A stretch of 64,000 nucleotides of DNA from an uncultured Sporolactobacillaceae bacterium (GTDB lineage: Bacteria > Bacillota > Bacilli > Bacillales > Sporolactobacillaceae): assembly GCA_963829575.1 (NCBI GenBank), contig CAWHJF010000021.1:160767-224766 (forward strand), read 5' to 3'. The position numbers and the translations under genes are program-made. Below are positions 21,528 through 44,345 of the stretch, piece by piece. The notes under the pieces are model-generated. The model had not been told where the DNA came from, searched no databases, and saw only the letters and a program-made list of their open reading frames with translations. How positions within the stretch are numbered: the stretch's first letter is position 1; each line of letters starts with the position of its first letter.

Positions 21528-23625
21528 TCATTTTCCTTTCAGACTACTTTTAATAACTGTCCAGTTGGTCGTTGGTCGTTGACAGACGTGATGTTCACAT
21601 AGAAAGTAAGTGGTGTTTCCATCCATCAGAGCAAAGTCGCGAGTAAACGACGCCAACTCTTCAAGTGTCGCTTTTTTCCCAACAAGGCTTAACACTTCAG
21701 GGTGAAACGCGGCGTTCCATTTTTTAAAAGAAGACTCTGGGAATCCCTCTTTGAAATCGATTTGATCTTCAGGCTCTAAAACCACCAATTCTTTTGTTCC
21801 GCCCTTCGCCAATAGATAAGACATGAGTAAAAAGGTATGACCGATCGGATAACGATTGGCATCGGCACCGAATCGGTTGAACATCTTGTCCACGTACATC
21901 TCAAGATCAAGGTCGCCGGTACGTCGTGCGAGCTTCAATAGTGTGAAAGACGCCACGCTGTTTCCCGATGGAATCGCCCCATCATAAATGTCTTTCGGAC
22001 GGGTAAACAACTCGTCTGTTTCTCGGCTCAGAAAGAACCCAAAATTTTCATGATCCCAAAACGTTCGGATCATATCGTCCGCCCACGTTTTCATCTTATT
22101 GAGATAAGTGCCCTCGAAAGTAGCTTCATAAAGGGCGTCACAGGCCCACAACATAAACGCATAATCATCTAAGTAACCCTCATAACGCACGTCACCCTCG
22201 CGATAACGGGCCATCCAGCGTCCATCTTGGAGGAGCATTTTTTCCAAAAACTCGAATGCTTTTGTGGCGGCATTCAGGTATTTGAAGTCTCCAAAAGCTT
22301 GATACGCCTTTGCAAGGGCTGTGATCATTAATCCATTCCAAGAGGTGAGGATCTTATCATCTTTATGTGGGTGGATGCGCGTTTCACGATGGTTAAAAAG
22401 TGCCTCACGACTTGAGGACAATCGTGACTTTAGTTCGTTTATTTCCATATCAAACTCCGATGCCGCCTCTTCTAGAGATGAGCTAATCAAGTGCGGAATG
22501 GACGCCCCCTCAAAGTTCCCCTGTCTTGTGATATTATATAGATTGCAGAAGAACGCACCTTCCTCATCCCCCAGCACATCCACGATCTCGTCCGGATTCC
22601 AGACATAAAACTTGCCTTCAACGCCTTCGGAATCGGCATCCTCCGCTGAATAAAAACCACCTTCTGGATCGGTCAATTTGTGCGTCACATACTGATAGAT
22701 TCCATCCACAATGTCTCGATAAAGTGGTTTTTGTGTGACCTGATAGGCTTCAGAGTAAGCGATCATCAACATCGCTTGGTCGTACAACATCTTCTCGAAA
22801 TGGGGAACCAACCACTCCCGATCCACCGAGTATCGAGCAAAACCACCACCCAGGTGATCCCATATTCCGCCACTCGCCATCCCATCCAAGGTTTTTTCAA
22901 CCAGTTTGAGGGCACGCGGTTCCTTATGTAAACGATGGATCCTAAGTAAATACATGAGTTGGTGAGGCGAGGGAAATTTAGGCTCTTGGCCAAACCCGCC
23001 ATAGACAGGGTCAAACGTATTTTTAAAATGTTCATAGGTCTTAGTGAGGATATTAGGTGCAATAGCCTCCGCCTCTTCTCCTGCTTTCTGCAAAGCCTCC
23101 ACAATCTGTTCACTTGCCTGAACGATCTGCGTCTGGTCTTCTTTGTATTGGGCGGATAATGATCTTAACACATCCATAAAACCAGGCTGTCCGTAGCGAC
23201 TTTCTTTCGGGAAATACATCCCCGCATAAAACGGTTTTTTATCGGGTGTTAGAAACACACTAAGCGGCCAACCACCATGTCCCGTTAACCCCTGACAGAC
23301 TGTCATATAGACCGAATCTAAATCCGGCCGTTCCTCGCGATCCACCTTAACTGAAACAAAATGCGCATTTAATAATTTTGCAACCTCTTCATCTTCAAAT
23401 GATTCGTGGGCCATTACATGGCACCAATGGCATGTGGACCAATGTCACCTCTAGGAATATCCGATGGATACAAACACTGGCTTGCCCTCCCGTTTGGCCT
23501 TCTGAAAGGCTTCAGGGCCCCATGCATACCAATCAACTGGGTTATGTGCATGTTGGAGTAAATAAGGCGATTTCTCATTGATTAAGCCTATTTGTATACC
23601 TCGGATCTTTTTTGTCTTTTACCAT
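21528..23625 (-). pseudogene. yyaL: YyaL-like thioredoxin-domain protein (DUF255 plus six-hairpin domain), interrupted near its 5' end
   Basis: ORF 21528..23414 begins at ..MAHESFEDEEVAKLLN.., which is internal to the family. Upstream in frame is [23 protein letters not shown], an 18-nt insert with TAG and TGA at 23436-23453. Further upstream the ATG at 23625 ([14 protein letters not shown]) is out of frame by 1 nt with [19 protein letters not shown]. Confidence 0.8.
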
Positions 23626-23783
23626 TTTAACACGTCCTTTTTCTGATTTTCCTTAGTAAAGATCTCCCTTTTTATGAGCGGCTCCATCAAGCCAGTTTAA
23701 TTTTTGGAGAAGCTTTACATTTTTATTTATCATAACATTAAAAAAGTGACGACACTTGGTCGTCACTTCTAATTTAACCATTA
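23413..23783. repeat. Direct repeat copy 1 (yyaL 5' end, its upstream region, and a terminator)
   Basis: Aligns by eye over its whole length with 25442-25795. It shares the 18-nt insert, the ...TTTTAACACGTCC.. block, GGCTCCATCAAGCCAGT, and the GTCGTCACTTCTAAT end. Confidence 0.85.
23741..23767 (-). terminator. Terminator of the 119-aa gene (inside repeat copy 1)
   Basis: AGTGACGAC-ACTTG-GTCGTCACT, with a T-run on the minus strand. Confidence 0.65.
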
Positions 23784-23793
23784 AAACAGATTT

Positions 23794-24123
23794 TTAGTTT
23801 AAGATATCAATTTCAATGCTTCTGAATCTTATATTGTCTTTTTTCTCCAACTCAATTAAATATTTCCCAAATTCAATTATAGTTGGATTTGAAATGTCAT
23901 CTAAATTTATAACTCTGTCTACATGAATCCATATTGACCTTGAATCCTCGAGAATAATTATTCCATTATACTCTGATTCAATTGATATTGATGCTATTAC
24001 AATTATTCCATCATAAGTTAAGAGAACATTATTATCATCTATTCTATAACCTGTATTTTTGGAAATATAATTCCCACCAGCCATTTCATCATATAAAATA
24101 AACGTCAAATCAACTTTTTCCAT
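23794..24123 (-). CDS. Hypothetical protein (109 aa from ATG 24123), AT-rich cassette gene
   Basis: The ORF has GGGGG 4 nt upstream of ATG 24123. No recognisable motif. It is divergent from the Abi gene. Confidence 0.5.
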   Translation of the reverse strand: MEKVDLTFILYDEMAGGNYISKNTGYRIDDNNVLLTYDGIIVIASISIESEYNGIIILEDSRSIWIHVDRVINLDDISNPTIIEFGKYLIELEKKDNIRFRSIEIDILN

Positions 24124-24352
24124 AGAACCCCCACGAATTAAATTAATTACCATACGTCTATATATTTTCTTAGAAGAATTAAAATAAAAGTGGAAATCTT
24201 ACCCAACGAACAAATTCATTTTTGGCTTTCTGGTCTCGTCTCTGTTTGAACGGCAAATTTGTTAAATAGGAGACGGAATGTAAAAACCTACTATTGATCT
24301 CGTATAGACAAACATCGTGGACGATTGCCACCATACTTCCTTTCGATTATAC

Positions 24353-24440
24353 TTGACTGATTATTAATACACCTTTAAAATATAGCTAACAGAACCCACC
24401 ACGCCTCTTTACAATGCGGACCACGGTGGGTCATTTTTTT
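24353..24440 (+). promoter_or_regulatory. Element E1: sigma-A-like promoter plus a short hairpin/T-run leader upstream of abi
   Basis: TTGACT (24353-24358), 17 nt, TAAAAT (24376-24381). Then ACCCACC...GGTGGGT followed by CATTTTTTT (24394-24440). A homologous copy lies at 26340-26424. Confidence 0.55.
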
Positions 24441-24460
24441 ATTTAAGGGGTTTATTTCTA

Positions 24461-25398
24461 ATGGACATTAGTAAAAATTTTAAAGAAATAAAAAATCCCA
24501 CTACCTTTAGTGAACAAATTGAACTGAACTCTATAAAAGCCGAAATTTAAAAATTGATGATATAGACTTTGCAGAAAACACCTTGAAGAGAATTAATTAT
24601 TATCGATTGCGAGGTTACACTTTAACTCTGATGGATCCTCAGAATAATGAGATCTTTGTAGACGGTAGCACATTTAATCAATTAATTTCGTTATATGAAT
24701 TTGATCGAAGACTTAGACAGTTATTTATGGCGTTCTTGGAAAGGATAGAAATTGCATTCCGTACACATATTACATACCATCTATCTCACTCATATGGTTC
24801 TTTGGGGTATACAAATAAAGAGGTCTTTATTAATGAAGATTTACACGAGGGCTTTCTCCTTGAGCTAGAAAAAGCCTTATTAAAAGGGAAAAATAGTGAA
24901 TCATTTGTAAAGCACTACTATGAGAATTATAACGGGGAATTTCCAATTTGGGTTGCTATTGAGGTTGCTTCATTTGGTACCATATCTAAATTATATAAAA
25001 ACCTAATACCTGAAATTAAGCAGGTCATCGGAAAAAACTATTATAATATCCCCTACTCTTATATTGAGAGTTGGTTGCAAACTCTATCAAACGTAAGAAA
25101 TGTTTGTGCTCATTATGGTAGATTATATAATAAAAATTTAACTTTTAAACCTCGTCTATTTAAAGAAGAAAGAAAAAACATAAATAATAATAAATTGTTT
25201 GCCGCAATCTATATTGCAATAAGACTGTTGACTAAGGTTGAAGGTAATAGATTTATTACTGATTTAGAGGCACTCATTCTCGAATATGAAAACCATGTTG
25301 ATTTTACATATATTGGACTACCCTTTGAATGGAAAGAACTCTTACTAATTATTAATTCTAGGAAACAAAGTAAAAATTCATCTTTTAACCTGAAATGA
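24461..25398 (+). pseudogene. Abi_2 (AbiD/AbiF-like) abortive-infection protein, disrupted by a 5-nt tandem duplication
   Basis: The main ORF has the Abi_2 hallmarks INYYRLRGY, SFGTISKLY and SNVRNVCAHYGRLYN. The N-terminus (MDISKNFKEIKNPTTFSEQIEL) is in another frame. GAACTGAACT at 24521-24530 is a duplicated GAACT, and removing one copy restores EQIELYKSRNLKIDD. Confidence 0.8.
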
Positions 25399-25441
25399 AA
25401 TGACAAACTTTAACTTAAAGATAAGACTACTATTCTACTCT

Positions 25442-25795
25442 ATTACATGACACGAATGACATGTGGACCAATGTCACCTCTAGGAATAGCCGTTGGAAAC
25501 AAACACTGGCTTGCCCTCCCGCTTCGCCTTTTGAAAGGCTTCTGGGCCCCACGCATACCAATCCACTGGGTTATGTGCATGTTGGAGTAAATAAGGTGAC
25601 TTCTATACCTCGGATTCTTTTTGTCTTTAAACATTTTAACACGTCCTTTGTTGGCTTTTTCTTAAGTTTTGATCCCCTTTTTTGGACGGCTCCATCAAGC
25701 CAGTGAAATTTTGGGGAAGCTTTACTTTTTATTTATTATAACAATAAAAACGTGACACTTGTCTTTAACTCGTCGTCACTTCTAATATAACCGTT
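25442..25795. repeat. Direct repeat copy 2 (orphan yyaL 5' fragment plus upstream region)
   Basis: The minus strand reads [60 protein letters not shown], after which homology stops. It has the same 18-nt insert (25465-25482) and lacks about 20 nt of the NRLINEK region. Confidence 0.85.
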
Positions 25796-25867
25796 ATTAT
25801 GTAGTTTGATTTTTCGATTTCTTTGATGATACCCTTCAAAATAATTAGTCATTTCGGCCCTTTCTAA

Positions 25868-26116
25868 TTAATTCATTTTTTCTAAATTATTTTTCATTGT
25901 ATCAAACAAGTCATCTATACTAAGCCCAGTTTTTGTACGAATTTTAAATAGTGTTGGTATAGACGGAAGTTCCAGTCCATTTTCTATCTTGCGTAGTTCT
26001 TCGACATCGATATCTATCAGAGCCGCAAATTCTTCTTCTGTCATGTCAATTTCCCCCCTTCTCTTTTCTCTTAAAACTTCTCCAAGTACAACTCTTATTC
26101 GTTCATCTTCGTTCAA
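25868..26116 (-). CDS. XRE-family helix-turn-helix protein
   Basis: The 82-aa protein has an HTH_XRE-like core (MTEEEFAALIDIDVEELRKIENGLELPSIPTLFKI). Confidence 0.7.
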   Translation of the reverse strand: MNEDERIRVVLGEVLREKRRGEIDMTEEEFAALIDIDVEELRKIENGLELPSIPTLFKIRTKTGLSIDDLFDTMKNNLEKMN

Positions 26117-26339
26117 ATTTATTCCTCCTTCAACATCAGCAATATTTTGTGGTGATTACATTGCGTTCATGAAGACAAAACTAAGGTTAAGGTTATGAAT
26201 ATGTCGATACTAAAGAGCCAATGCTTCAATGGATGTTTGAAAAAGATTGAAAGGCTATAAGTCAATTAGGTTATCTAATAAAGGATGGGACACAAACCAT
26301 TATAAAACTTTGTGTGCAAATAGAATTATTTTAAACTTC

Positions 26340-26424
26340 GTGACTGCTTATTAATATTTCTTTAAAATATATTAAACACCTCCCACGTCACTTCACAATG
26401 TGGACAACTATGGGTCATTTTTTG
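26340..26424 (+). promoter_or_regulatory. Element E2: orphan copy of the E1 promoter/leader with no plus-strand gene downstream
   Basis: GTGACT (26340-26345), 17 nt, TAAAAT (26363-26368). Then ..CCCACG..ACAATGTGGAC..TGGGTCATTTTTT. It is collinear with E1. Confidence 0.5.
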
Positions 26425-26489
26425 TAAATCATATGAGTTTAAATTATAGTTTGAAATGAATTAAGGATAAGGATAAGAATCAGACTCAA

Positions 26490-26880
26490 TTAGCTCTTAC
26501 TGAGGGATAATTCGAGGTTGTTTAAATCCAAAATAAAACCGCTCTTTAAAAGTATGTCTAAACCTAGTAATCCGCTATGTTCATTAGGCAAAATGGATAC
26601 ATCAATCTCAACGTTGCTTATTTTAAAATCCCCAATTTCTATGGAATCCATTTTCTTCGAATAAAAATGGACGTTTCCACCAATCCCATAAGCCTCATAA
26701 ACTGTGTCTCCATTCTCGTAGGAGACACCAATCTCCGACAAAAAATCTGGATTAATCACGGTGTGAGAAGATCCTGTATCAATGACAACGTTATTTGATC
26801 TCCATAGATTTCCCTCGAAAAGTAACATTTAATGTGGTGGTTATAAGTTGTCCATTATATTCAATTTCCGCGAATATACC
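26490..26880 (-). pseudogene. Retropepsin-like (clan AA) aspartic protease, frameshifted
   Basis: ORF 26490..26828 carries the VVIDTGSSHTVI active-site motif and GLLGLDIL. The expected N-terminal strand (AEIEYNGQLITTTLNVTFRGKSMEIK) lies in a different frame at 26810-26880 and is itself out of frame with the upstream ORF. Confidence 0.6.
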
Positions 26881-27115
26881 CCACTCTCATTAAAGGATCT
26901 TTTCTAATGTGGATAATTAATTCTTCATTAATTGTATGATAGATAATTCCATCTGGACCCGATTTAAAAAATTCTTGATTGGCTTCTTCATTCGTCAACG
27001 GCTTATTAATCGCTACATCATCCACAATTTTCAAATCTCCATCTTGATGAAAATCTAGAATGGAAACGAGAACAAATTGATTTGGAAATTTTTCTCTAAC
27101 CTCTTGCCATTTCAT
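26861..27115 (-). CDS. Small protein (84 aa), possibly DUF5678-like; may originally have been fused or coupled to the protease
   Basis: The ORF is MKWQEVREKFPNQFVLVSILD... The family assignment is from memory only. Confidence 0.4.
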   Translation of the reverse strand: MKWQEVREKFPNQFVLVSILDFHQDGDLKIVDDVAINKPLTNEEANQEFFKSGPDGIIYHTINEELIIHIRKDPLMRVGYIRGN

Positions 27116-27392
27116 CTAGATCACCCTTTCTTTCTCAAAATTATAAGATATTTTCGAAAAGGAGTCCATTAATAAAAATCTTAACGTGAGGCGTGTTATT
27201 AAGTTGAATCTATTAAACAAGATCATAATGATCTTCAACCTCTGCAAGCATATAAACCGGTTTTATTTGATCAAGCTCTTCTCGTGCGTCATTTCAAAAG
27301 TCAGTTGACACCCCTTGCGCATGATTGGCTCTATAGCCATCGACAATGCATCAAGCATCTCCACTCTCATATCCTGATTGGCAAAATTTAGC

Positions 27393-28373
27393 TTAGCGAC
27401 ATTCCACCATGTCATCTTCCAACAAAGAAAACAGCCTATCAAACTTTTCGATTTGATAGGCGTTTCTATGCGTTTTTTTATCTTCGCTAAATTCTCGAAA
27501 AAGCTTATTGGTTTTCTCTTGCACATCCTTACCAGTAATTGTTAAGTACGCAACGAAGATAACAATTATGAGTGTTAAAATAACACTTACTTTCTCAGTT
27601 CCATATCCTAATCCGCCAGCACTGCGATCCTTCCCAAACCAATCTGCAAATGATGCTCCTAATGGACGCGTTAAAATATAGGCAATCCAAAATGTTGCAA
27701 TTCCGTTTGCTTTGATTAGCCCAAAGCACAATCCTGGTATCGCAAATAAACAAGTAAACATGATCCCAGAGGCTAAAAATCCCATATGGAAGGTTTCAGC
27801 AGTTAAATCTCCTAATGCTGTTCCCATAGCAAATGTTGCTAGAACGGTTGCCCAATAAAAGAGTTCCCGACGTTTGGTATTGATGCTATGAATAGATAAT
27901 GTTTTCTCGGTTTTATACCACAACCGAAAAATAACAAGTAAAGCGACAAAAAAGGCAGAAGCAGATAACCAATATGGAATAAGAAGCACCACATGGGCGA
28001 CATCCGCAGCCATTGTTCCAAAAATACTGACCATACAAACCATTAACCAATAAACCCAGGGTATATAACGATTTACTTTAAATTGTAGGATTAAAGCAAC
28101 AATAAAACCTAATGTACCTAGTATTACAGCAAGATATTGATTAACATGAAACACGAGATAATCGGATGTCGCTTCCCCCATTGCCGTTGACAAAAGTTTA
28201 ATGATCCAGAAATAAATGGTGATTTCGGGGACTTTTGTAAGTAATTGTTTGGTGTTTTCAACTGAAACGCGATTATTCAAAATGATCTTTTCCTTCCTTA
28301 AAAGGTTATAAATGACCTCTAACAATTCTTTTTCTTTAATTTCCCTGACTGATAAGTAAATGTTCATACGCAA
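27393..28373 (-). CDS. Polytopic membrane protein resembling the COG4705 family (internal duplication)
   Basis: KVPEITIYFWIIKLLSTAMGEATSDYL is repeated as RELFYWATVLATFAMGTALGDLTAETF. An alternative TTG start at 28280 follows AAGGAAGGA. Confidence 0.6.
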   Translation of the reverse strand: MRMNIYLSVREIKEKELLEVIYNLLRKEKIILNNRVSVENTKQLLTKVPEITIYFWIIKLLSTAMGEATSDYLVFHVNQYLAVILGTLGFIVALILQFKVNRYIPWVYWLMVCMVSIFGTMAADVAHVVLLIPYWLSASAFFVALLVIFRLWYKTEKTLSIHSINTKRRELFYWATVLATFAMGTALGDLTAETFHMGFLASGIMFTCLFAIPGLCFGLIKANGIATFWIAYILTRPLGASFADWFGKDRSAGGLGYGTEKVSVILTLIIVIFVAYLTITGKDVQEKTNKLFREFSEDKKTHRNAYQIEKFDRLFSLLEDDMVECR

Positions 28374-28546
28374 TAGTATTAAGTTATCATTATCTAAATA
28401 GACGATGCTAGCCCAAAAAAAGTTTAAAGGAATCTTTTTTTATTTATTAGCAAATCTTTCGGAAGGTTATTGATTCTCTTGAATTTGCTACCCATCAAGA
28501 TAAGTCTAAAGGGTACCTCATTCCTTTTTTTCTTTACTATCCTCAA

Positions 28547-29692
28547 CTAGATCTGATTAATTAATTGATTCCATTCCTTGGAAGACATCATATCTAAATT
28601 CCAGATTCCCACGCCAGCCATGCGATATTTTTCGACTAGATCAAAATAGATTTGGAGAGAACGATCATTTGTCAGCCATACTTTATATCGTTTTCCATTT
28701 TTATTATAAGTTACATCGTAAGTGGCTTGTTTAGGGTCCCATGTTTCAGGACGATTCGTTTGTTTCAATAGCTTGCTCACATATTGATTTGCTAAAGCCA
28801 TGCTCGTAATCGTATTGCCACTTTGATCGACTTCCCAGATTCTTGTATATGAGGGTAATCCAATGATAAGTTTTTGAGGGGAGACACCTGTTTCAATGAG
28901 GTGTTTGACATTTCCCTCTAACCAATTAAGAGAAGTAACAGGCCCGGGTGAAGAGTCAGTGGACCAATGTTGGTCATAGCCCATAAAAACAATGTAGTCG
29001 CTATATTTGCTAAGTTGTCGATTGAAAGGAATAAGTGTTGAAGAACGATCCAGTGGTTCAGGCTGTATATCAATTGATAAAGTGATATGATTTGGAATGA
29101 TTGACTTAGATAGACTCATGACAAATTGACTGAACGCCTTACGATCGTTTAATGGAATTTGTTCTATGTCTAAATTTAATCCGTCTAAATGGTTCTGTTG
29201 AGCCCTAGTTTTAATTTCTCGAATGACTTGTTTCCAAACTTTTGAGTTCTTTAAGAATTGATGAGTTGAAGTATCTGATTGGTTCCCCAACGTAACCCTT
29301 CCCCAAACCTTTTTACCTTCTTTTTGCAGACTTGAAATAAAAGTAGGAGAACAATTAAGATGTAGATTGTAGGAACTGTTTATAGTTGCAAATAAAGGGG
29401 AAACGATTTTAAGCTTATCGTAACTTGCAAGCTGATGGTTGTTTCCGACCATCCATCCTAATGTCACCAGTTTTGAAGGAGCAATTTCTGATGGGTTCTT
29501 AGTCGTAGGTTTAGATCGATTTGCTAAATGAGATGGATCAGCTGTTTTTAAAGCCCAACTCCCATTCATACTATTAGGGTGCTGTATAAAAATAATTAAA
29601 GTTGGAATTCCAATGACCGCTATAGCGATAAGAATGATAAAAATAACCATTCGCCGAAAAAAACGTTGAATATATGATGAAAGATTGTCCAT
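28547..29692 (-). CDS. Membrane-anchored GH18-family glycosyl hydrolase (YdhD/YaaH-like)
   Basis: 381 aa with an N-terminal TM helix and a GH18 motif LDGLNLDIEQI. Confidence 0.8.
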   Translation of the reverse strand: MDNLSSYIQRFFRRMVIFIILIAIAVIGIPTLIIFIQHPNSMNGSWALKTADPSHLANRSKPTTKNPSEIAPSKLVTLGWMVGNNHQLASYDKLKIVSPLFATINSSYNLHLNCSPTFISSLQKEGKKVWGRVTLGNQSDTSTHQFLKNSKVWKQVIREIKTRAQQNHLDGLNLDIEQIPLNDRKAFSQFVMSLSKSIIPNHITLSIDIQPEPLDRSSTLIPFNRQLSKYSDYIVFMGYDQHWSTDSSPGPVTSLNWLEGNVKHLIETGVSPQKLIIGLPSYTRIWEVDQSGNTITSMALANQYVSKLLKQTNRPETWDPKQATYDVTYNKNGKRYKVWLTNDRSLQIYFDLVEKYRMAGVGIWNLDMMSSKEWNQLINQI

Positions 29693-29975
29693 TCCTTCAC
29701 TTCCTGTAGTAATTTATTATTAATTAATATATATGAGAGGAACTACAGAATAGTAGTTAAACTCTATCAAAAAATTTAATCCTTTATAAGTTTAATTCTA
29801 CTTTTAGTCATTACATATTAATTATGCTAATTTGATAGTTTAACAAAAAAAGGGATGCTAATCACTGAACAAAAAGCATACCCAAATTTTATTAATGCCG
29901 CTCATTTAATTATTCTCTTCACAAAATGAAACACTAATTGGTTGTTCAAAGTCTGTTTATGAATTTAATATGTCA

Positions 29976-32032: not shown

Positions 32033-32456
32033 ATTTCTTCGCCTCAATTCCTTAGTTCTTTGATGTTCGTCACTTTTCGCACTAGAGGAATCGTAAAGAT
32101 AAGATTTTCTTGGACTAGTATTAGTTGACGAAATTCTAGTATTAAAATTGACTGCTTGTTTTTCATAATTTTTAATCAAGTACCAAAAAACTAAGGTATT
32201 CTAATTTTTCATACACTAATAGTTTATCGATAAAAAATTATTAAAGTATAAATAACAAATTAAAAATTGATGAGAAATAAATTAAAAAACGCTCATTTAT
32301 ATATTCCTCAAATAGAACTAATCAAGAAACTTAGAATCAATTGGTTCTATTTGGTATTATTTTCAGTAAACGTACAATTATTAAAGGGAAATAATAACAC
32401 ATACATATATTTAAACCGCCCCAATATAGGACGGCTCTATGATCTAATTGATCCAA

Positions 32457-36492: not shown

Positions 36493-37121
36493 CCAAAGCT
36501 ATCTGACATCTTCTTCCATTGATCCACGTTGTCTGCACCATATGGCGCCCATAATTTCAGGACTTCAAGTTTATTATTGTTTTGATAGAGATAGGCGCTA
36601 TCCTCTAATCGAACTTGTTTTCCTGTTACCGAATTCGGATCCGAGTTTGAGCTATAAACCACTCGAATCGCTTTTCCAGAAGGAAGTTGGACTTCGGTGA
36701 CACTTTTCACCTTGACCGCTCGTTCCTGTTTCTGTAATTGAGGAATCCAATTTGTCTTCACCAAATCCGCTGAAAGATTGGATGAAAACGGGGTTAAGGA
36801 CGTGACACTAACACCATCTAATTTACTAACAAATTGGACCATGTTGCCTTTTGTTGAACGCGCCCAACCTTCTGGAACGACTAAATGATAGCCATTCTGA
36901 CTGGATTTATAGGAAATAAAAGCTTGTGAATCTGGAATATCTCCTACCGGATGTGTTTCCGGAACCACTGGTTTTTCTTTGGTTGACGAACTTTGATTCG
37001 TTGATGACGACGGGGTAGAAGGATTTGATTGGGTAGTAGTTGGCGTAGACGCACTGCCGCAAGCGACAAGTGATGCCGTTAATACAATTGAACAAGTCGT
37101 TAAAGCAATCTTATTTATCAT
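36483..37121 (-). CDS. Lipoprotein (lipobox LVACGS) with a Ser/Thr/Pro-rich linker; first gene of the ABC operon
   Basis: The signal peptide MINKIALTTCSIVLTASLVAC-G is followed by a low-complexity linker and then a roughly 150-aa globular domain of unknown family. Confidence 0.75.
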   Translation of the reverse strand: MINKIALTTCSIVLTASLVACGSASTPTTTQSNPSTPSSSTNQSSSTKEKPVVPETHPVGDIPDSQAFISYKSSQNGYHLVVPEGWARSTKGNMVQFVSKLDGVSVTSLTPFSSNLSADLVKTNWIPQLQKQERAVKVKSVTEVQLPSGKAIRVVYSSNSDPNSVTGKQVRLEDSAYLYQNNNKLEVLKLWAPYGADNVDQWKKMSDSFGWN

Positions 37122-37329
37122 GGTACATCCTCCTAGAATAGTAACTTTTGTTACGAATTAAACTTAAAAGTAACGGTTTTAACCGTTGGACAGGTTCATC
37201 TTACCTATTAAGTCTGAGAATGTAATCAAATAATAATGAGAGCTTGATGAGAAAATTCCAATAGACTTTTCATTTGTTTTTATAAGAAAGGTGTAAAATA
37301 AGAGAAAGAAAATTAAATGAGGTGTTAGT

Positions 37330-38025
37330 GTGGAACAATTAAAACTACTTCTAGCGGAAGATGAAGAACATGTTGCCACCTTTATTGAATTAGAATTAGT
37401 TCATGAAGGTTATGATGTAACAGTCGTTCATGATGGAAAACAGGCCTATATATCCTTTGATGAGAAGGTGTTCGATCTTATTTTACTCGACTGGATGCTT
37501 CCTCATTTAGATGGCTTAGAAGTCTGTCGACGGATTAGAAAAAGAAGTGACGTTCCTATCATCATCCTAACAGCTCGGGATTATTTAGGAGATAAAATTG
37601 CCGGACTTGATACTGGAGCAGATGATTATATCACCAAGCCTTTTGAAATTGAAGAATTACTTGCAAGGATACGAGCGGTCACACGTCGACAAAAAAGCCC
37701 CCTCCCACAACAAGAAGAACAATTACAAATTGTAGACTTAGAAATGAATTTACTAAGCCGAGTGGTAAATCGGGGTCAAGATGTCATTGACTTAACCCCT
37801 AGAGAATTTGACCTCCTCTATTTCCTATTAAAAAACCAGGGGATCGTTTTAAGCCGAGACAGTCTTCTCTCCAAGGTGTGGGGGTATGACTTTGATGGGG
37901 GAACGAATATTGTTGATGTGTATATTCGTTATTTGAGAAACAAGCTTGATCGAGATTATCAGGTTAAGTTGATTCATACCATACGGGGTGTTGGCTATGT
38001 CTTGAGACCGGAGACAGAGGTGTAA
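37330..38025 (+). CDS. OmpR/PhoB-family response regulator
   Basis: The receiver domain (LLLAEDEE...DLILLDWMLP) and winged-helix output (TPREFDLLYFLLKN...IHTIRGVGYVL) are present. GTG start follows GAGGTG. Confidence 0.9.
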   Translation: MEQLKLLLAEDEEHVATFIELELVHEGYDVTVVHDGKQAYISFDEKVFDLILLDWMLPHLDGLEVCRRIRKRSDVPIIILTARDYLGDKIAGLDTGADDYITKPFEIEELLARIRAVTRRQKSPLPQQEEQLQIVDLEMNLLSRVVNRGQDVIDLTPREFDLLYFLLKNQGIVLSRDSLLSKVWGYDFDGGTNIVDVYIRYLRNKLDRDYQVKLIHTIRGVGYVLRPETEV

Positions 38026-39452
38026 TGACTATTTGGAGGCGTTTCATAGAAGTCGTTAGTTTTAAGAAAGTTAGAAATACTCTTATGGCTCATTTCACCT
38101 TCTGGTATGTCATCCATCTATTTATAACCATGTTCATAATTGGGATGATCATCCTTGTGGCAGCTAGCTATTTTTTAATCAATAATATTAAAAAAGATAC
38201 ACGCGTCCTAGAACAGCAACTCCTCGATGCCTCACAAGAACAACAGGTGGATTGGACGGAGGCAATCGATAATCTTCTCTATCCTAACTACAGTAATTAT
38301 TATGTGAAAGTTACAGATTCTAAAGGTAAGATGATTACAAGTTCACATGGGTGGGATCAAATATCTAATACCGATTACGACCAAATTAACAAAGCATGGC
38401 TCCTTTCATTGTTGTTTAACCACGGAAAAGGCGTATACTTCACCCGTTCCGCCCCTTGGGTAGAAAAAAATGGGAGCATCGGACACATTACCATCTACGC
38501 ACAACTTAACCCTATTTGGGATTTTTTACGATTCTTAATTGAAATTTTACTTACCGCAACCTTAATTGGCGTCCTGTTAGGCTCCATGTTTATTTTTTTC
38601 CGTACAAGAAGAAATTTGGAGCCCTTAAAGAACATTACGGACACAGTTAAGGATATTCAACAAGTGTCAGATTTCAAAAAACGGGTTCCCATACCTGATG
38701 GACCGAATGAATTAACCACCTTAGCCAATGCCTTTAATCGATTACTTCAAAAAATTGAAGGGCAAATAGAAAAGGAGCGTATGTTCGCATCAAATGCATC
38801 GCATGAATTACGGACGCCAATTACCGCCTTTAAAGGCCATCTTAACCTTTTAAAGCGTTGGGGAAAAAAAGATCCAAAGGTACTGGATCAATCCATCCAT
38901 GCTCTTGAGAGTGAAGGAAACCGAATGCAACGGTTAATCGATCAATTACTCAGACTCGCGCAAAGTGATTCCCCTTATATTGAGACGCGTCCAATCCTTT
39001 TAAATCAAGTCATCAAACAAGCCAACCAAGAATTATTAGAAAACCTAAAACCTTTACAAGTCATTCAGGTAAAGCGTGATGAAAATATTGAAATCGTTGG
39101 AAACTCAGACCAAATTAGACAAATCGCCATTATTTTCATCGAAAATGCGATTAAATTCACAGATAAGACAGGGGAAATTGAACTATCCATTTACGGAGAA
39201 GAAAACTGGGGCGTTTTTGAGATCCATGATTCTGGTATAGGTATACAAGAAGAAGATCTTCCTCATATCTTTGAGCGCTTCTATCGAATAGATAAAGCGC
39301 GTTCAAGACAAACAGGTGGAACAGGACTCGGACTTTCCATTGCAAAAGAAATGATTGATCAACACAAAGGTCACATTGAGGTTCAAAGTGCGTTTGGAGA
39401 AGGAACGACCTTTAAAGTTATGCTTCCCAAAGTAAATATGCCCAACTCCTAA
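38025..39452 (+). CDS. Sensor histidine kinase (2 TM, HAMP, HisKA, HATPase)
   Basis: H-box (SHELRTPITAFKGH), N box (NAIKFT) and G boxes (DSGIGI, GGTGLGLSIAKE) are present. There is a 1-nt overlap with the regulator gene. Confidence 0.9.
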   Translation: MTIWRRFIEVVSFKKVRNTLMAHFTFWYVIHLFITMFIIGMIILVAASYFLINNIKKDTRVLEQQLLDASQEQQVDWTEAIDNLLYPNYSNYYVKVTDSKGKMITSSHGWDQISNTDYDQINKAWLLSLLFNHGKGVYFTRSAPWVEKNGSIGHITIYAQLNPIWDFLRFLIEILLTATLIGVLLGSMFIFFRTRRNLEPLKNITDTVKDIQQVSDFKKRVPIPDGPNELTTLANAFNRLLQKIEGQIEKERMFASNASHELRTPITAFKGHLNLLKRWGKKDPKVLDQSIHALESEGNRMQRLIDQLLRLAQSDSPYIETRPILLNQVIKQANQELLENLKPLQVIQVKRDENIEIVGNSDQIRQIAIIFIENAIKFTDKTGEIELSIYGEENWGVFEIHDSGIGIQEEDLPHIFERFYRIDKARSRQTGGTGLGLSIAKEMIDQHKGHIEVQSAFGEGTTFKVMLPKVNMPNS

Positions 39453-39567
39453 GTTGAGTCTGGGCTTTTTAATATCCTTTTATTCACTATATTCACAGGG
39501 GGAAATTCAATTTTAAATAAAAGTAAAATATAAAACACCTGTAAATAAATATTAATTGGAGTATTAC

Positions 39568-39813
39568 TTAAAGTGACACCAATGACAAATACTCCAAATA
39601 ACCAACGTTAGCTATACCCAATAGATACGAAAACAAGCTTGTTTCCACGTTTCGCTTTTTCGAATGCTTCGTCTCCCACGGATACCAGTCCACTGAATTA
39701 TGAGCGTGCTGTAATAAATAAGGAGATTTTTCTTCGATTAGTCTATTGGGTACATTTTTATTAGTTGGCAAAGAACGTTGTTTCGTTTGAGTTCTTTTCA
39801 GTTTAAAGTCCAC
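39568..39813 (-). pseudogene. Third, more diverged orphan copy of the yyaL 5' end
   Basis: The minus strand reads [46 protein letters not shown], then (after a G-run frameshift) [25 protein letters not shown] 17-nt gap follows, then AGT ATT TGT CAT TGG TGT CAC (S-ICHWCH), after which homology ends. Confidence 0.8.
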
Positions 39814-39856: not shown

Positions 39857-40897
39857 CTATACTTCAGGAAGCAAGACAACCTTGCCTAGTTTTCCTGCTT
39901 TTTTAAAATAAATTTGAGCTTCCCTCGCTTTTTCTAAGGGAAAAGTACGATCGATTACTGGTTTGATTTTCCCTTCAGAAATAGCGTGAAGCATACGTTT
40001 AAACTCTTCCCTTGTGCCCAATACAGAGCCATAAAGAGTAATATGCTTTAAGTACAATGTTCTAAAATCAAGCTCTGTCTTCTGTCCGCCAGCAGATCCA
40101 GATGTGCAAAATTTCCCACCTCTCTTCAGTACCTGAAGGGAAGTTGAGAACAAAGCATCTCCTACAACATCTAATACCGAGTCAATCGGACCTTCATTCA
40201 CTTCTATTATTTCTTCAGCAAGTTTATTTGATTTATAAGACAATACATGGGTTGCTCCCAATTCCTTCATTTTTTCTTCCAAACCTAAGTCACCTACAAT
40301 AGCGATGACCTTAGCACCAAATACTTTTGAGGCAATTTGTACATTTAATGATCCAACACCACCATTTGCCCCAGTTACCATAACAGTCTCCCCAGGTTGA
40401 ACTTGAATTTGTTCTACCATATGCCATGCTGTTAAACCACTAACAGAAAAAACAGCACTTTCTATATAGTCGGACAGAGGCATATCAAAACAAAGGTGAG
40501 CTGGCCACACTACATATTCCGCATATCCACCATCATATTCTGAACCAATGAAGGACATATCTTCTGAAATATGTTCAAAACCAACATCTCCACTTGATGT
40601 AAATGGGAAAAGGACAACATTTTTTCCAATCATGGATTTAGCCACAGATTCCCCAACCTTTACGACGCTTCCTGTTATATCAGAGCCGGGTGTACGAGGA
40701 AATTGAACTCCTTCTGGTCGCCATCCAGACTTGGAACCAGTGCCATAAGCTCCTTCCCTCATCCAGATTTCTGTATTATTTATTGCACAAGCCTTTACTT
40801 TGATTAGCACTTCATTTTCTTTAGGTTCTGGTATAGCTTTTGTAACGATTTCTAATTTATCTACATCACCGTATCCCGTCACTTGGACAGCTTTCAT
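39857..40897 (-). CDS. Zinc-type alcohol dehydrogenase/quinone oxidoreductase (MDR superfamily)
   Basis: 346 aa with a GroES-like N-terminus and the Rossmann motif VTGANGGVGS. Confidence 0.85.
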   Translation of the reverse strand: MKAVQVTGYGDVDKLEIVTKAIPEPKENEVLIKVKACAINNTEIWMREGAYGTGSKSGWRPEGVQFPRTPGSDITGSVVKVGESVAKSMIGKNVVLFPFTSSGDVGFEHISEDMSFIGSEYDGGYAEYVVWPAHLCFDMPLSDYIESAVFSVSGLTAWHMVEQIQVQPGETVMVTGANGGVGSLNVQIASKVFGAKVIAIVGDLGLEEKMKELGATHVLSYKSNKLAEEIIEVNEGPIDSVLDVVGDALFSTSLQVLKRGGKFCTSGSAGGQKTELDFRTLYLKHITLYGSVLGTREEFKRMLHAISEGKIKPVIDRTFPLEKAREAQIYFKKAGKLGKVVLLPEV

Positions 40898-41306
40898 AAG
40901 TTGATCGCCTCTCTTTTTTTGGATCGTTAAGTGTTTAGTATTATATGTGTGCTCTTAGTTTCGTCAAAATAACTTCCCAGTTAAATGAAAAATTTCATGA
41001 CCTCACAGATCTTTAGATATAAATCATAACAAAAAATAATGAATTTGACATGGAAAGAGGGAAACGACATGTATCTATATACAGCTTAGTTAAGTCATAC
41101 TCGTTGAAAATGGTTTCTGCGCATTATAAATTAAATACATTGTAAAATTTACATTAAATAGGAACATTGTTGTTCTTGGTTCCATGCCCTTGATTTTGTT
41201 AGATCGCTCTTTTGATTCTTGTCCTCAGTTACAGCTAATCCTATTAGAAAAAAGTCTACCTTTTCTTATGTTAAGGTGGAGTCCACTCTTATGTAAAAGT
41301 CACCTT

Positions 41307-41864
41307 TTATTTCACTATTTTTACGATAATTAAACGAGCGACCGATGTGGATACCATATAAAACAAAAAAGAATAAATAAATTTCCAATCATATAATTTA
41401 TAATAGCCAATCCAAACAAACATGGGTTCTGCTGCAAAAGCAAGAAAACATGCCGTAATCAAATTTGAAATTAAGAAGATTCTCAGCGAAGATAAAGAAA
41501 AGAATTGGTAACCAATCATGAAGACAATCGGTACTAAAATGGAGTCTGCAGTTAGTAATGGAGGAACAATTGGAATCATCTTTATTGGATAACTCCACCA
41601 AGATAAATTTGTCCCAATATCATCAAGAATAACAGCCATAATATTAATCATACACCCATAAAAGGCAATCTCATAGGCTCTACTTTTATCGAGAACCTTC
41701 CACCATATGAATAATGGAATAATGGTTAAGCCAACAAGGAGCCACCATTCCCAGGTTAAAAAAGTTGCATGGAGCCACTGACTTACATCAAGTCTATGTA
41801 ATTCCGCCCTCACTTGTTGCGCTTTTAGAAAGGTTTTTGTGACATGGTTCGTGTTGATTAGCAT
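41307..41864 (-). CDS. Polytopic membrane protein (possibly CBO0543-like), unknown function
   Basis: 185-aa hydrophobic, Trp-rich ORF. The family name is recalled from memory only. Confidence 0.5.
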   Translation of the reverse strand: MLINTNHVTKTFLKAQQVRAELHRLDVSQWLHATFLTWEWWLLVGLTIIPLFIWWKVLDKSRAYEIAFYGCMINIMAVILDDIGTNLSWWSYPIKMIPIVPPLLTADSILVPIVFMIGYQFFSLSSLRIFLISNLITACFLAFAAEPMFVWIGYYKLYDWKFIYSFLFYMVSTSVARLIIVKIVK

Positions 41865-41952
41865 CTCTCATCCATTCCTTATGGTTTTCGTTAGATTTCA
41901 AAAGGATTTGCTCAATCACAGGTTAGATCCACTTCATAAGAATCAATCTCTG

Positions 41953-42417
41953 TTATGACCTCTTAATCTTCGCAACGCCTAAGGCAAAGTGATTGAAAAG
42001 GACATTTTCTACAAATTCAGTTTGCGCCTCTTCACAGTCAATTATTAAAATGACCTCAGAATGTTTCCCTTTCATTAGCTTTTTTCTTTTCTTATAGATT
42101 TTCTCAATGAAAAGTCTAATTACGAAACCTAAGGCAAAGCCAACAATAGCACCAATTATTCCCCAATAAATAGGTCCCCATGATAATTCAAATCCAATAC
42201 TTGCTCCAATGACAGAAAGGGCAGTTCCAAGCACCATACCTATATCGATTAAAGAGGTCCCATCCGAACGATGATGCGTATCGAATAGTTTCCGGTCTTC
42301 CTTTCGATTATCTAATGGAATAGCAAATATGTTGTCTTGAGAAAATCCCTTTTTCTCTATCGCCATTTCCAAAAAGATATGATTTTCAAATGTGGAAAAT
42401 AGTTGCATATAAGTCAC
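41953..42417 (-). CDS. Hypothetical membrane protein (154 aa)
   Basis: The ORF has two central TM helices. ATGA overlap with the upstream small gene suggests an operon. Confidence 0.5.
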   Translation of the reverse strand: MTYMQLFSTFENHIFLEMAIEKKGFSQDNIFAIPLDNRKEDRKLFDTHHRSDGTSLIDIGMVLGTALSVIGASIGFELSWGPIYWGIIGAIVGFALGFVIRLFIEKIYKKRKKLMKGKHSEVILIIDCEEAQTEFVENVLFNHFALGVAKIKRS

Positions 42418-42735
42418 TCTACTTTCTGCCCCTTTAAGATCTGAAAGCTTGGTTCTTGATAGTTTTCTATCAAAAAACTTCTCTGTACCTTTTCATAGAG
42501 TTTATTATTTTCGACAGTATTTACAAAAGAATCAAAAATTGAAAACCCGTATAATGATGGAAAAAATAATAACCACTCGGGCTTTAAAACGGACGTTGCT
42601 TGTTGGATTTCTCCTAAAAATAGCAAACTCACCACTTCTAGTGTGTGTGAATAGTAAAAAAATATGACAGACCAAATAATAACAAAAAAAAGCAGTAACA
42701 ATCCTATGAATATAGAGTTGTCCTAGGCCAGGCAT
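42414..42735 (-). pseudogene. Small membrane protein (PGLGQLY N-terminal motif), split at a T8/A8 homopolymer
   Basis: ORF 42532..42735 (MPGLGQLYIHRIVTAFF..) and ORF 42414..42701 (..FFVIIWSVIFFYYSH..) join into one roughly 106-aa ORF if the A8 run at 42683-42690 is shortened by 1 nt. Confidence 0.6.
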
Positions 42736-42889
42736 TAAAACTTAATTACTTGCGATTAATAGCAGAATTTTGTTGATTTCCCTCAAAAAAATACCCAATA
42801 ATGACTGAACTGTCATTATTGGGTATTAAAGAAATTAAACAGGAAAAAATATGCATTTTAACTTTATGGAGCCGATGACGATGCACCGA

Positions 42890-43833
42890 TCATTTAACTT
42901 TGATCACTATTTTCCCTTTGGCATGATGTGTTTCACTTAATGCATGTGCTTCTTGTAACTCTTCTGCTGAAAAGTCAAATACATGTCCCACTTGTGGCTT
43001 GATAATTTCTTTCTCAAGTAAGTCGCCTATTTCACTTAACTGTTTACCATTTGGCGTTAACCAATAGGAGCTTGCCGTTACTTGATGCTTTTCTGCCAAT
43101 TCTGGATCGGGTTGTCCGGCAATCGTGACCAGTCTGCCACCAGGTTTTAGTACTTGGAAGCTTTTATTTAAGATGTCACCGCCCATTGTATCAATGACCA
43201 CATCATAATCACTTAATTCTTCTTCAAATTGTTGTGTGCGGTAATTAATAAATTGATCTGCACCTAGCTCTTTAACATAAGCTTCATTTTTATCACTTGC
43301 TGTTGTCGCGACATAGGCACCCAAATGTTTCGCCATTTGAATAGCTAAACTTCCTACACCACCCGCTCCAGCATGAATAAGGACTTTATCTCCTTGCTTG
43401 ACTTTTGTGTGATCCACTAGACATTGCCAAGCGGTTAAACCTGCTAATGGAATAGAGGCTGCTTCTTCAAAGTCAGGTTACTTGGTTTTTTCGCAAGCAA
43501 TTCCTCTTCCACAGCCACAAATTCCGCATAAGTCCCTTCAGCGGTAGTTGCCGGTCGTGCAAAAATTTCATCCCCGACTTGAAAATTCTTTACTTCACTT
43601 CCGACCTCCACGATCTTGCCCGCAACATCCCAGCCAAGGATAATTGGGAATGACCAATCCAGCATCTGCTTCAAGTAACCCGCACGAAGCTTCCAATCAA
43701 TCGGATTAATGGAGGTTGCATAAACCTCAACAAGGACTTGGTTTGCTTTAATTTTGGGTTTCGGTTGTTCCTGTTCTACTAACACATCTTTATTACCATA
43801 TTCATTGATGACAACTGCACGCATGACTAGCAC
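42890..43833 (-). pseudogene. NADPH:quinone oxidoreductase (MDR family), split by a 1-nt deletion
   Basis: ORF 43444..43833 ends ..KKPSNLTLKKQPLFH*. The next frame reads FEEAASIPLAGLTAWQCLVDHTKVKQGDKVLIHAGAGGVG and continues into ORF 42890..43417. The break is at the A3 run 43469-43471. Confidence 0.8.
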
Positions 43834-44169
43834 TCCCTTTTACTTTTGCGAAATATATTTGCACGTTCTATTATTAGTATCTTACTAATAAGTCATTCCT
43901 TCTCTTCAGTGCATGAGAAAAGTCATACTTATAATTCTTCATTTATCTATCAATTTGAGACAAATTATATTTTAGCTTCTAATAGCTTGTAATCCAAATC
44001 ATCTGCTTATGAGTTGTAAATTATGAAGCAAATATCCGTCTCTTTGATAAAAGAAATTTATTTTCCAACGAACTTTTTCTGCTTTCTCATTTCGAATCAA
44101 GTGTTCACCTTTACTAAAATGTAACTATTTATCATGTTTTGAAGCGATGATGAAAATTATTAGAAGGTT

Positions 44170-44345
44170 ATTTATAAACATGGCACCCATGACCTGTGCG
44201 TTAGTATATCCAACAGATACGAAACCGGGCTCGTTTTCAAGTTTTCGCTTTTTCAAAAGCTTCCTCTCCGTAAGGAAACCCTTCCACAGGGTTATATGTG
44301 TGTTGGCGTATGTAAGATGACTTCTCAGCGTTTAAAATTAGTTGG
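44170..44345 (-). pseudogene. Fourth, strongly decayed yyaL 5' fragment
   Basis: The minus strand reads ..[30 protein letters not shown], then (shifted) ENEPGFVSVGYTNAQVMGAM. It is recognisably the [31 protein letters not shown] segment. Confidence 0.6.

Follow-up and report, generated by a model that had tools for sequence, protein, structure and literature searches.

Nested 5' ends of yyaL in a Sporolactobacillaceae genome suggest serial serine-recombinase-type insertion at one coding motif and a stop-led gap in the interrupted gene

We analyzed a stretch of 64,000 nucleotides from an uncultured Sporolactobacillaceae bacterium (GenBank assembly GCA_963829575.1, contig CAWHJF010000021.1, positions 160,767 to 224,766 of the forward strand), hereafter the window, in which the gene yyaL is accompanied by several copies of its own 5' end. 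The gene body lies at 21528-23414 on the minus strand, as an intact open reading frame (ORF) of 628 amino acids whose Met start directly follows the codons for CHWCHV. It encodes a DUF255/SSP411 protein with a thioredoxin-like N-terminal domain (Pfam Thioredox_DsbH, positions 55-163, E 1e-43), and its nearest homologs in the protein database are 71-66% identical to it, an exact look-up of the protein having given no record. A tblastn search with the yyaL N-terminus returned exactly four matches in the window, all on the same strand. We refer to them as c1 (innermost) to c4 (outermost), and to the segments between them as islands A (innermost), B (middle), and C (outermost). Contigs of other genomes, phages, and metagenomes are denoted by L-numbers, L084 being Pullulanibacillus sp. 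KACC 23026.

The copy c1 (23415-23625, minus strand; tblastn span 23295-23600, E 1e-53) is attached to the gene, with its ATG at 23625-23623 and its CHWCHV codons at 23432-23415. The detached copy c2 (25442-25634, minus; 25441-25602, E 2e-22) has a 20-nt deletion in the LINEK region, reads CHSCH in place of CHWCH, and breaks off after GTAAT. Also detached is c3 (39573-39771, minus; 39583-39771, E 3e-13), which carries a -1 frameshift after PWG, has its CHWCH codons at 39587-39573, and breaks off after TGTCAC. The outermost copy, c4 (44178-44422, minus; 44177-44335, E 1e-8), comprises a native-type promoter region (44351-44422), an ATG at 44348-44346, and a heavily decayed 5' fragment whose core reads GTCATGGGTGCCATGT. 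In a self-comparison with blastn, c1 and c2 were 80.6% identical over 382 nt (E 7e-98; 91% in the first 163 nt), c3 and c4 77.6% over 98 nt (E 1e-11), and c1 and c3 71% over 136 nt (E 6e-10), with 76% for c2/c3 and 73% for c2/c4. The four fragments are genuine homologs and not low-complexity matches.

An earlier note on this DNA, made from the sequence alone, had reported four same-orientation copies at these places, and both searches confirmed them. It had also described their divergence as increasing from copy to copy. The copies do differ, but they form two sequence lineages, c1/c2 and c3/c4, and not a simple age gradient. Moreover, the c1/c2 repeat is not limited to about 200 nt, as had been assumed: the similarity runs on upstream for about 1 kb in collinear blocks, to 24439 and 26423, which bracket different small genes, a 119-amino-acid ORF in the c1 unit and an XRE regulator in the c2 unit. 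Matches outside the window can exceed those within it, as seen for c3 and L083 (81%), c2 and L084 (92%), and c1 and L085 (86%), compared with 71% for c1 and c3.

The point at which the copies lose homology to the gene is shared, as the earlier note had observed. Read on the gene strand, homology stops after CATGTAAT (...TGTCATGTAAT) in c2, at about 25442, after ...TGGTGTCAC in c3, at about 39573, and after ...GGTGCCATGT in c4, at about 44178. The three breaks thus lie no more than about 10 nt apart, inside the CHWCHV codons or immediately past them. The same breakpoint recurs in more than 25 fragments of other genomes, including 20 detached ones from IMG/VR and metagenomes, the old fragments of L084 (directly after TGGTG), L189, L134, L218, and L224, and a stray fragment of L085.

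In each copy, moreover, the GYS and TCHWCH codons are separated by a short insert that begins with a stop codon. In c1, 18 nt at 23436-23453 (minus strand), TAGAGGTGACATTGGTCC, read TAG AGG TGA CAT TGG TCC, with two in-frame stops, and lie after the Ser codon TCC (23456-23454) of SIGYS and before ACA-TGC-CAT-TGG (TCHWCH). The identical 18 nt occur in c2 (25465-25482) and in the stray fragment of L085. The insert of c3 differs, comprising 23 nt at 39588-39610, TAACGTTGGTTATTTGGAGTATT, and c4 retains a decayed remnant of the c3 type, C-TAACGCACAGG, at about 44194-44204. The stop follows the last Ser codon immediately, as TCC-TAG in c1 and c2 and as AGC-TAA in c3; the c1 gap ends in TCC, the same codon as the Ser codon preceding it. 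In addition, one extra base (cttaAtcaatgag, at about 23582) shifts the frame of c1 by +1 at codon ~14, and therefore the reading frame from the ATG at 23625 meets a stop after 16 codons. The innermost copy is accordingly attached to the gene, as had been noted, but it is broken by the frameshift and the stop-bearing insert, leaving a replacement 5' end that is non-functional as read. A dif/Xer-like site, considered on account of TTCCTAGA in c1, was rejected on spacing.

Elsewhere, such inserts are found beside recombinase genes. We scanned IMG/VR for the pattern of GYS, a stop, a short gap, and then CHW, and recovered six independent detached yyaL fragments, each beside a protein of about 500 amino acids with Resolvase, Recombinase, and Zn_ribbon_recom domains, that is, a large serine recombinase (LSR). 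These six recombinases are 30-40% identical to one another. A pattern without the insert yielded one further detached fragment, and overall an LSR adjoins a yyaL fragment in 17 loci. In L090 and L096, the fragment lies between the LSR and PHROG-matching phage genes (thymidylate synthase, dNMP kinase, phrog_2426, and others), and therefore belongs to the phage. The search of the GenBank phage collection with the N-terminal peptide gave one unannotated match of 4.5 kb and no cultured phage exemplar.

At the detached sites, the insert mirrors the sequence directly past the core. For example, L090 reads TTTTTACTTTAG, 26 nt, CTAAAGTAAAAA, a 50-bp dyad centered between the T and the G of the Trp codon, and perfect inverted repeats of 13 and 11 nt are present in L167 and L196, respectively. 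The number of complementary bases at the 17 outer positions is 14 in L090, 15 in L167, 14 in L196, and 13 in L087; overall, six detached sites have 12-15 of 17 complementary, where the null probability of at least 12 is 0.0006. This identifies the insert as the outer left arm of the phage attachment site (attP) of a serine integrase, contained in a phage-borne surrogate yyaL 5' end. Within the literature collection that we searched, there was nothing on yyaL/DUF255 as an integrase target, nor on translational bypassing linked to attachment (att) sites.

Intact elements carrying a yyaL 5' fragment beside an integrase, which the earlier note had suggested looking for in other genomes, indeed occur in bacterial chromosomes. 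We fetched four "truncated" yyaL homologs of named isolates without sequence-pattern bias. The Parageobacillus locus (CP130884.1, L224) shows, in order, an insert-less old fragment, an LSR gene (2030-3538), an element of about 8 kb, a surrogate 5' end with insert, and the gene body. Its old fragment ends in GYS-T-C-H and TG, followed by ATGACACAAACTAAGTTAAACCT, and its surrogate 5' end runs up to ...AGGTTTAACTTAGTACATGTCACTG, where the gene body follows. Joining these two ends, our positive control, restores a perfect 14-nt inverted repeat at 10 nt from the center on each side (p<0.0005). In Pseudalkalibacillus hwajinpoensis (CP156674.1, L225), an LSR gene (8211-9743) lies immediately upstream of the surrogate, and the cargo is SIR2- and GIY-YIG-like. 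Sporolactobacillus pectinivorans and Scopulibacillus darangshiensis represent a scar state, with an insert-bearing gene among ordinary neighbors and no recombinase within 10 kb. The metagenomic contig L189 holds an insert-less old fragment and an 8.6-kb element with the LSR immediately upstream of the surrogate, and an LSR gene in or next to the element was also seen in L145 and L174. Recombinase-less arrays of two to three same-strand fragments were found in L110 (with Schlafen/AlbA_2 cargo), L134, L165, and L218, which makes the window a large example of a recurrent pattern.

Comparison of relatives for empty-site and single-island states, also proposed earlier, revealed both. In the Logan contig L085, whose yyaL is 68% identical to that of the window, a native promoter is joined to an uninterrupted gene, representing an empty site; a stray c1-type fragment, 86% identical to c1 and bearing the same insert, lies 6 kb upstream. 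Pullulanibacillus sp. KACC 23026 has an uninterrupted yyaL, 66% identical to the window's, and represents the single-island state: a recombinase-less 1.65-kb module of PDC-M08A, PDC-M08B, and XRE genes, a promoter, and a 5' end lie directly upstream of yyaL. The corresponding 1.7-kb module of the window (25467-27183, minus), which consists of the c2 5' end, promoter, XRE gene, abiF-like block, PDC-M08B, and PDC-M08A, is 91.8% identical to it over 1740 nt, compared with 69-78% for the neighboring genes. Upstream of the Pullulanibacillus module is a decayed old 5' fragment that breaks directly after ...TGCCATTGGTG and whose promoter matches the sequence upstream of c4 (83% to L084 8126-8200). 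The attached Pullulanibacillus copy is c2-like for about 30 codons, continues with 47 nt identical to its own old fragment, and has no insert, which suggests gene conversion between the two arms. The c4 promoter block and fragment also match the intact gene of L085 (71% over 263 nt). Since this promoter is shared with L085 and Pullulanibacillus, c4 represents the ancestral promoter and 5' end, as a nested series of insertions predicts. The copy c3, in turn, matches a functional-looking attached 5' end in L083 at 80.8% over 198 nt, insert included. Among 80 distant yyaL homologs (all at most 48% identical, from a contig scan with the yyaL protein), 79 were uninterrupted and one carried an insert.

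These comparisons bear on two explanations that involve no serial integration. The first is a purely local origin, namely segmental duplications or pseudogene debris of the gene's own 5' end, produced by illegitimate recombination with no mobile element. The placement of all copies on one strand within 21 kb, in a window that lacks a mobility gene, fits this idea. We nonetheless consider it very improbable and largely refuted: the two fragment lineages are each closer to other genera than to their neighbors, the breakpoint is common to dozens of unrelated genomes and phage attP sites, and the module beside c2 is 92% identical to Pullulanibacillus, compared with 69-78% for the flanks. The second explanation is a set of switchable gene starts, in which 5' cassettes, akin to phase variation or a shufflon, exchange yyaL promoters or N-termini or turn the gene on and off, using a recombinase encoded elsewhere. 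Its precedent would be L081, where an inverted yyaL 5' fragment ending in GYS-TAA (5547-5654) lies beside a truncated ArsR-like ORF and a 473-amino-acid tyrosine recombinase fused to an HsdR-N/Mrr-like nuclease domain (7068-8489) lies 1.3 kb upstream of yyaL. However, all four window copies are in direct orientation and none is inverted, frameshifts, deletions, and stops have degraded three of them, the copies are separated by 2-14 kb of unrelated cargo, and the L081 recombinase has no homolog in the window (tblastn) or in the other fetched loci. We give this explanation hardly any credence.

We instead propose that the DNA encoding T-C-H-W-C-H-V in yyaL serves as the bacterial attachment site (attB) of an LSR family found on temperate phages and on small integrative elements of Bacillota. 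The attP of this family would lie inside an element-borne copy of the first ~55 yyaL codons, and crossover would take place in or beside the Trp codon. Upon integration, the host 5' end would stay behind, truncated at CHWCH(V), and the element's surrogate promoter and 5' end would join the gene body. The attP would require an outer recognition arm about 14-25 bp from the crossover, where the host gene has its IGYS codons; because the arm falls on the IGYS positions, the surrogate would carry a non-coding, stop-led insert of 12-45 nt between GYS and TCHWCH. In the window, c4 with its native promoter would be the oldest, followed by c3 with island C, c2 with island B (including PDC-M08), and c1 with island A (AbiD/abiF), and the recombinase genes and most of the element backbones would have been lost later.

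We consider it likely that at least three LSR-type insertions, one after another at yyaL, gave rise to the window, each bringing a surrogate 5' end. The serial integration with replacement 5' ends postulated in the earlier note is thereby sustained in its core, given the LSR family, the phage attP sites, the integrated elements, and the native promoter of c4, but only island C rebuilds an attP-like dyad, and weakly so, and islands A and B fail to do so. That each window island entered through an LSR is something we infer, and the inference is reasonably supported for island C and not for A and B.

According to the nested model, each copy's insert is expected to be a mirror image of the flank beyond the next outer copy. 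At the left end of island C, a P'-type arm (44140-44177, minus) contains AAATAACC at 14 nt from the core center. Together with GGTTATTT in the c3 insert, 15 nt from the center, it forms a symmetric 8-nt inverted repeat (shuffle p 0.0145), and 9 of 17 outer positions are complementary (p ~0.07). On this basis, island C can reasonably be attributed to an LSR element of the GGTTAY-motif type. A homology of this arm to the P' arm of L189 was considered and dropped, its global alignment being no better than controls; the shared outer motif was kept. The copy c3 and its own downstream flank (39573-39610 with 39548-39572) form another inverted repeat of 9-10 nt, TTGGAGTAT/ATACTCCAA, which is asymmetric, at 8 and 16 nt from the center (p 0.003). 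The integrase of the next element may have used the c3 scar as the near attB arm.

Several observations weigh against serial LSR-type insertion. The attP test is only marginal for island C, whose P' arm did not align with that of L189 above controls, and no inverted repeat was found for island B (c2 insert against the flank after c3) or island A (c1 insert against the flank after c2). The c1/c2 insert mirrors no flank and resembles TAG plus a degenerate duplicate of the T-CHWC codons, that is, a duplication of the core and not a flank mirror. No sizeable ORF in the 64-kb window has a recombinase, transposase, or relaxase domain in Pfam, and tblastn with five LSRs of the family detected no LSR gene or remnant there; the absence of a recombinase, originally noted for 21 kb, thus holds for the whole window. 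The collinear sequence of about 1 kb shared by c1 and c2 fits local duplication as well, and the 33-37 kb part of island B holds housekeeping-like genes at native G+C content. Furthermore, the Pullulanibacillus island is flanked by a 47-nt perfect repeat with the insert in neither copy, for which the model needs an additional gene-conversion step. Finally, the empty and single-island states come only from relatives with yyaL 66-68% identical, with no same-species genome among them, and sequencing runs contained only 5% of the sequence words of the window. The features of a tyrosine-integrase island are absent as well: the repeated arms are 71-91% identical without the identity block typical of such enzymes, and the window ORFs contain no Phage_integrase domain (Pfam). 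A scan of the region for tRNA genes found none, and an Rfam scan found only the abiF motif.

Part of this evidence fits a spread of the fragments that needs no recombinase. Circles derived from another array, already bearing truncated 5' fragments, could have entered by single crossover within an arm of about 160-200 nt, or the innermost unit could have arisen from the next one by unequal recombination. The close relation of c1 and c2 (91% in the coding part, an unusual 18-nt insert in common, and some 1 kb of collinear blocks including the abiF motif), the lack of an attP-like dyad for islands A and B, the chimeric attached copy of Pullulanibacillus, which indicates that arm-to-arm recombination occurs, and the recombinase-free window all speak for it. 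However, each truncated junction would still require an original site-specific event, so that this route complements the LSR model more than it replaces it; in addition, arms that are 71-80% identical are poor RecA substrates, and the symmetric inverted repeat at the c3 and c4 ends is left unaccounted for. We regard it as a possible, though rather doubtful, account of the array. As for individual islands, homologous recombination between the ~160-nt arms of circles already carrying an LSR-made junction may have brought in, or copied, A and B, and island A may reflect Campbell-type homologous recombination or local duplication and not an independent site-specific event.

Regardless of how each island entered, the insert forms a stop-led gap that we examined across yyaL genes. 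A metagenome scan with the same GYS-stop-gap-CHW pattern identified at least 120 loci; the insert counts below are from the matches listed. These include at least 96 distinct authentic 5' ends, at least 75 of them attached to the gene body, and 83 distinct insert variants. The gap measures 12-45 nt, with a mode of 19-21, and its length modulo 3 is spread evenly (0 in 29 variants, 1 in 24, and 2 in 30). The first triplet is TAG, TAA, or TGA in 83/83, and never TGG, although the pattern allowed it; a stop also leads the insert in all eight loci retrieved without a stop requirement. The last gap triplet is identical to the Ser codon before the gap, the presumptive take-off codon, in 11 of the 83 variants, a further 8 have a last triplet decoded by the same tRNA, and the middle base of the triplet equals that of the Ser codon in 86%, compared with at most 13% at control offsets. 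This likeness can equally be explained by the inner binding motif of the recombinase. An in-frame start before CHWCH exists in only 20/83.

Several observations concern the integrity of the interrupted genes and the selection on them. Among the complete gene bodies, 40 of 48 are full-length, and the N-terminal ORFs nearly all comprise 53-60 codons with a proper start. In one clade of human-gut assemblies, whose inserts are homologous but diverged, the ratio of nonsynonymous to synonymous substitution rates (dN/dS) was 0.05-0.13 over the 46 codons before the gap and 0.03-0.12 over the 100 codons from CHWCH on. The CHWCHV codons are intact between the stops and the annotated start in all nine insert-bearing attached genes found without pattern bias (c1 and eight loci of relatives). 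In the protein database, 33 of the 119 closest homologs are 608-639 amino acids long, that is, annotated from an internal Met, and all seven such "truncated" homologs viewed at the DNA level carry the insert.

We considered and rejected several routes around the gap. Removal of the insert at the RNA level does not agree with the assembled contigs from RNA-labelled runs, which keep the insert and span it without a joint; contigs without an insert were divergent homologs of other organisms. Selenocysteine incorporation, read-through, and an internal start were discarded on the grounds that the stops are not at Cys codons, the gap length modulo 3 is even, and in-frame starts are few. As a separate observation, the longest inserts (38-63 nt; L086 875-920, L091, L210, and L224 9925-9990) have a GC-rich hairpin directly after the stop, and two of these variants have GAGAGG 10-13 nt before the resume point, reminiscent of T4 gene 60 with its take-off hairpin and its Shine-Dalgarno-like element.

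Persistence of the insert under selection would imply either translational bypass or a tolerated split gene lacking the CXXC motif. As judged from these patterns, the simplest reading would be a continuing need for full-length YyaL, produced through bypass of the gap, and the split gene would be the alternative. More specifically, ribosomes in a lysogen or scar cell may skip the stop-led attP-arm gap by programmed bypass from the Ser codon, yielding full-length YyaL with its CHWCH active site, a proposal that we hold to be a serious one while placing it somewhat short of an even chance. Conversion appears to have removed the insert in Pullulanibacillus, which points to a cost of carrying it.

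The cargo of the islands is diverse. In island A, a 119-amino-acid ORF without a family match (23794-24153, minus) sits where the c2 unit has its XRE gene. A block at 24354-24439 (plus) contains an abiF RNA motif (24395-24431; Rfam RF03085, 38.3 bits, gathering cutoff 37), which lies on the same strand as, and 150 nt upstream of, an AbiD/Abi_2 abortive-infection gene (24583-25398, plus; Pfam Abi_2 E 2e-52, PADLOC AbiD E 7e-83) that is convergent on c2. A second, diverged abiF-like block occurs in the c2 unit at 26341-26423 (motif copy 26378-26423; blastn repeats D6/D7) and also in Pullulanibacillus (L084 9215-9298), with no Abi gene following it, which suggests that the Abi gene was replaced by the PDC-M08 pair. 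In the c2 unit, the XRE regulator (25868-26116, minus) is accompanied by a retropepsin-like gene matching PADLOC PDC-M08B (26490-26828, minus; E 1e-33) and an adjoining PDC-M08A gene (26861-27115, minus; E 1e-17). The retropepsin module thus matches both genes of the PADLOC candidate defense system PDC-M08 and has a predicted anti-phage role. By these profile matches, island A and part of island B are putative small defense cassettes, AbiD with abiF RNA and PDC-M08. Protein scans of IMG/VR found no relatives of AbiD or PDC-M08B and thus gave no support to a phage origin of the cassettes.

The rest of island B (27393-39452) encodes DUF347, GH18, GatD, and MurT proteins, a MacB-type ABC exporter (two ATPases and a permease), a lipoprotein, and a response regulator with a histidine kinase. 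Island C (39857-43833, minus) holds a zinc-ADH-type oxidoreductase (39857-40897), three small membrane proteins, and a second oxidoreductase, of the quinone-oxidoreductase type, split into ORFs at 42890-43417 (175 amino acids) and 43444-43833 (129 amino acids) on the minus strand, which is probably a frameshift pseudogene. The notion of three AT-rich islands applies only in part. The G+C content is 0.32-0.38 at 24-33 kb and 0.30-0.40 at 37-47 kb, compared with about 0.42 in the flanks, but it is native-like at 33-37 kb, around the ABC exporter (0.42-0.45), and island B may be composite or partly native DNA. Low G+C content also extends beyond c4 to 47 kb: a HisK_N-type histidine kinase just outside c4 (44943-46118, minus) has the lowest value in the window (0.30-0.32), and the AT-rich stretch therefore does not stop at the outermost fragment.

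Further features lie outside the array. Downstream of yyaL is a helicase/RNase_H_2/YpsA/DivIVA neighborhood, syntenic with Pullulanibacillus and L081, which includes a class B RNase P RNA at 15494-15874 (minus; 309 bits). Two tandem arrays of a 194-nt unit are located at 3519-4949 (7.4 copies) and 58410-59025 (3.2 copies), with 95-96% identity within each array and about 68% between them, both within about 1.5 kb of genes for LysM-domain cell-wall hydrolases. They contain no long ORF because the period is not a multiple of 3, and the folding of a single unit is not significantly better than that of shuffles.

Taken together, these findings turn a recombinase-less 21-kb patchwork into a readable history, in which names can be given to the site of integration, to the family of the recombinase, and to the types of donor element, and in which two of the "islands" would be portable anti-phage cassettes tied to half an att site. 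For genome annotation, the "truncated" yyaL genes of 620-628 amino acids that we examined (7/7) are split by an integrase att arm and not by random lesions. An LSR family that carries a surrogate gene end with an attP arm in its coding sequence is unusual, and it offers a natural series of attB and attP sites on one conserved target. If bypass is confirmed, it would be a widespread and chromosomally fixed form in bacteria, created and spread by the site requirements of a recombinase, and present in about a quarter of the closest, mostly Bacillales, yyaL homologs as well as in gut Clostridia-like lineages. With both of its halves under strong purifying selection and the CHWCH codons between a stop and the next start codon, the interrupted yyaL is a candidate for natural bypassing, beyond phage T4 and yeast mitochondria, that can be tested directly. 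The array itself represents a known kind of process, in which integrative elements accumulate at a single att site and gene ends are replaced; the surprising part is a serine-integrase attP arm that forms a stop-led gap in surrogate coding sequence and is kept in many apparently functional genes.

Known LSR elements inside Bacillus genes include skin in sigK (SpoIVCA), SPbeta in spsM (SprA), and gin in gerE (PMC5499854, PMC5595907). Like the yyaL elements, they rely on an LSR acting on a short palindromic att site within conserved coding sequence in spore-forming Bacillota, and in both groups phage-sized and very small non-phage elements follow the same logic. However, skin, SPbeta, and gin merely split their gene, whose function returns only on excision, whereas the yyaL elements carry a surrogate promoter and 5' coding end. 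They also differ in that the yyaL attP arm lies inside coding sequence as a stop-led insert, and in that the elements of the window pile up in an array from which the recombinase is gone.

Replacement of a displaced gene end, and tandem islands at one att site, are familiar from phage 21 and e14 in icd, from tRNA and tmRNA islands, and from Streptococcus pyogenes prophages at gene 5' ends. As in the window, each integration at such icd- or tRNA-type sites leaves a decaying duplicate of the gene end, the newest copy is the attached one, and recombinase-less remnants are common. Those islands, however, depend on tyrosine integrases, their attP and attB share an identity block, and their replacement end is uninterrupted, whereas yyaL is targeted by a serine integrase, an enzyme that normally needs no homology, and its replacement end is interrupted by the attP arm. 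The window also resembles the defense hot spots found beside integration sites, in that small, AT-rich, recombinase-less anti-phage cassettes occupy one position and vary between relatives; unlike in those hot spots, each window cassette is tied to a surrogate gene start and half a serine-integrase att site.

The closest parallel to the gap is T4 gene 60, in which ribosomes bypass a 50-nt coding gap that is part of a mobile element (PMC5462505; bioRxiv 10.1101/2022.08.31.505936). In both cases, a short non-coding gap derived from a mobile element interrupts a conserved ORF, with a stop right after the final sense codon. The gap's terminal codon often resembles the take-off codon, a likeness that for yyaL the inner binding motif of the recombinase could explain equally well. 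A hairpin follows the stop in some of the long variants, and both flanks are under purifying selection. The yyaL gap differs from that of gene 60 in being known from sequence alone, in having an exact or same-tRNA landing codon in only 19/83 variants, and in measuring mostly 15-25 nt without a hairpin.

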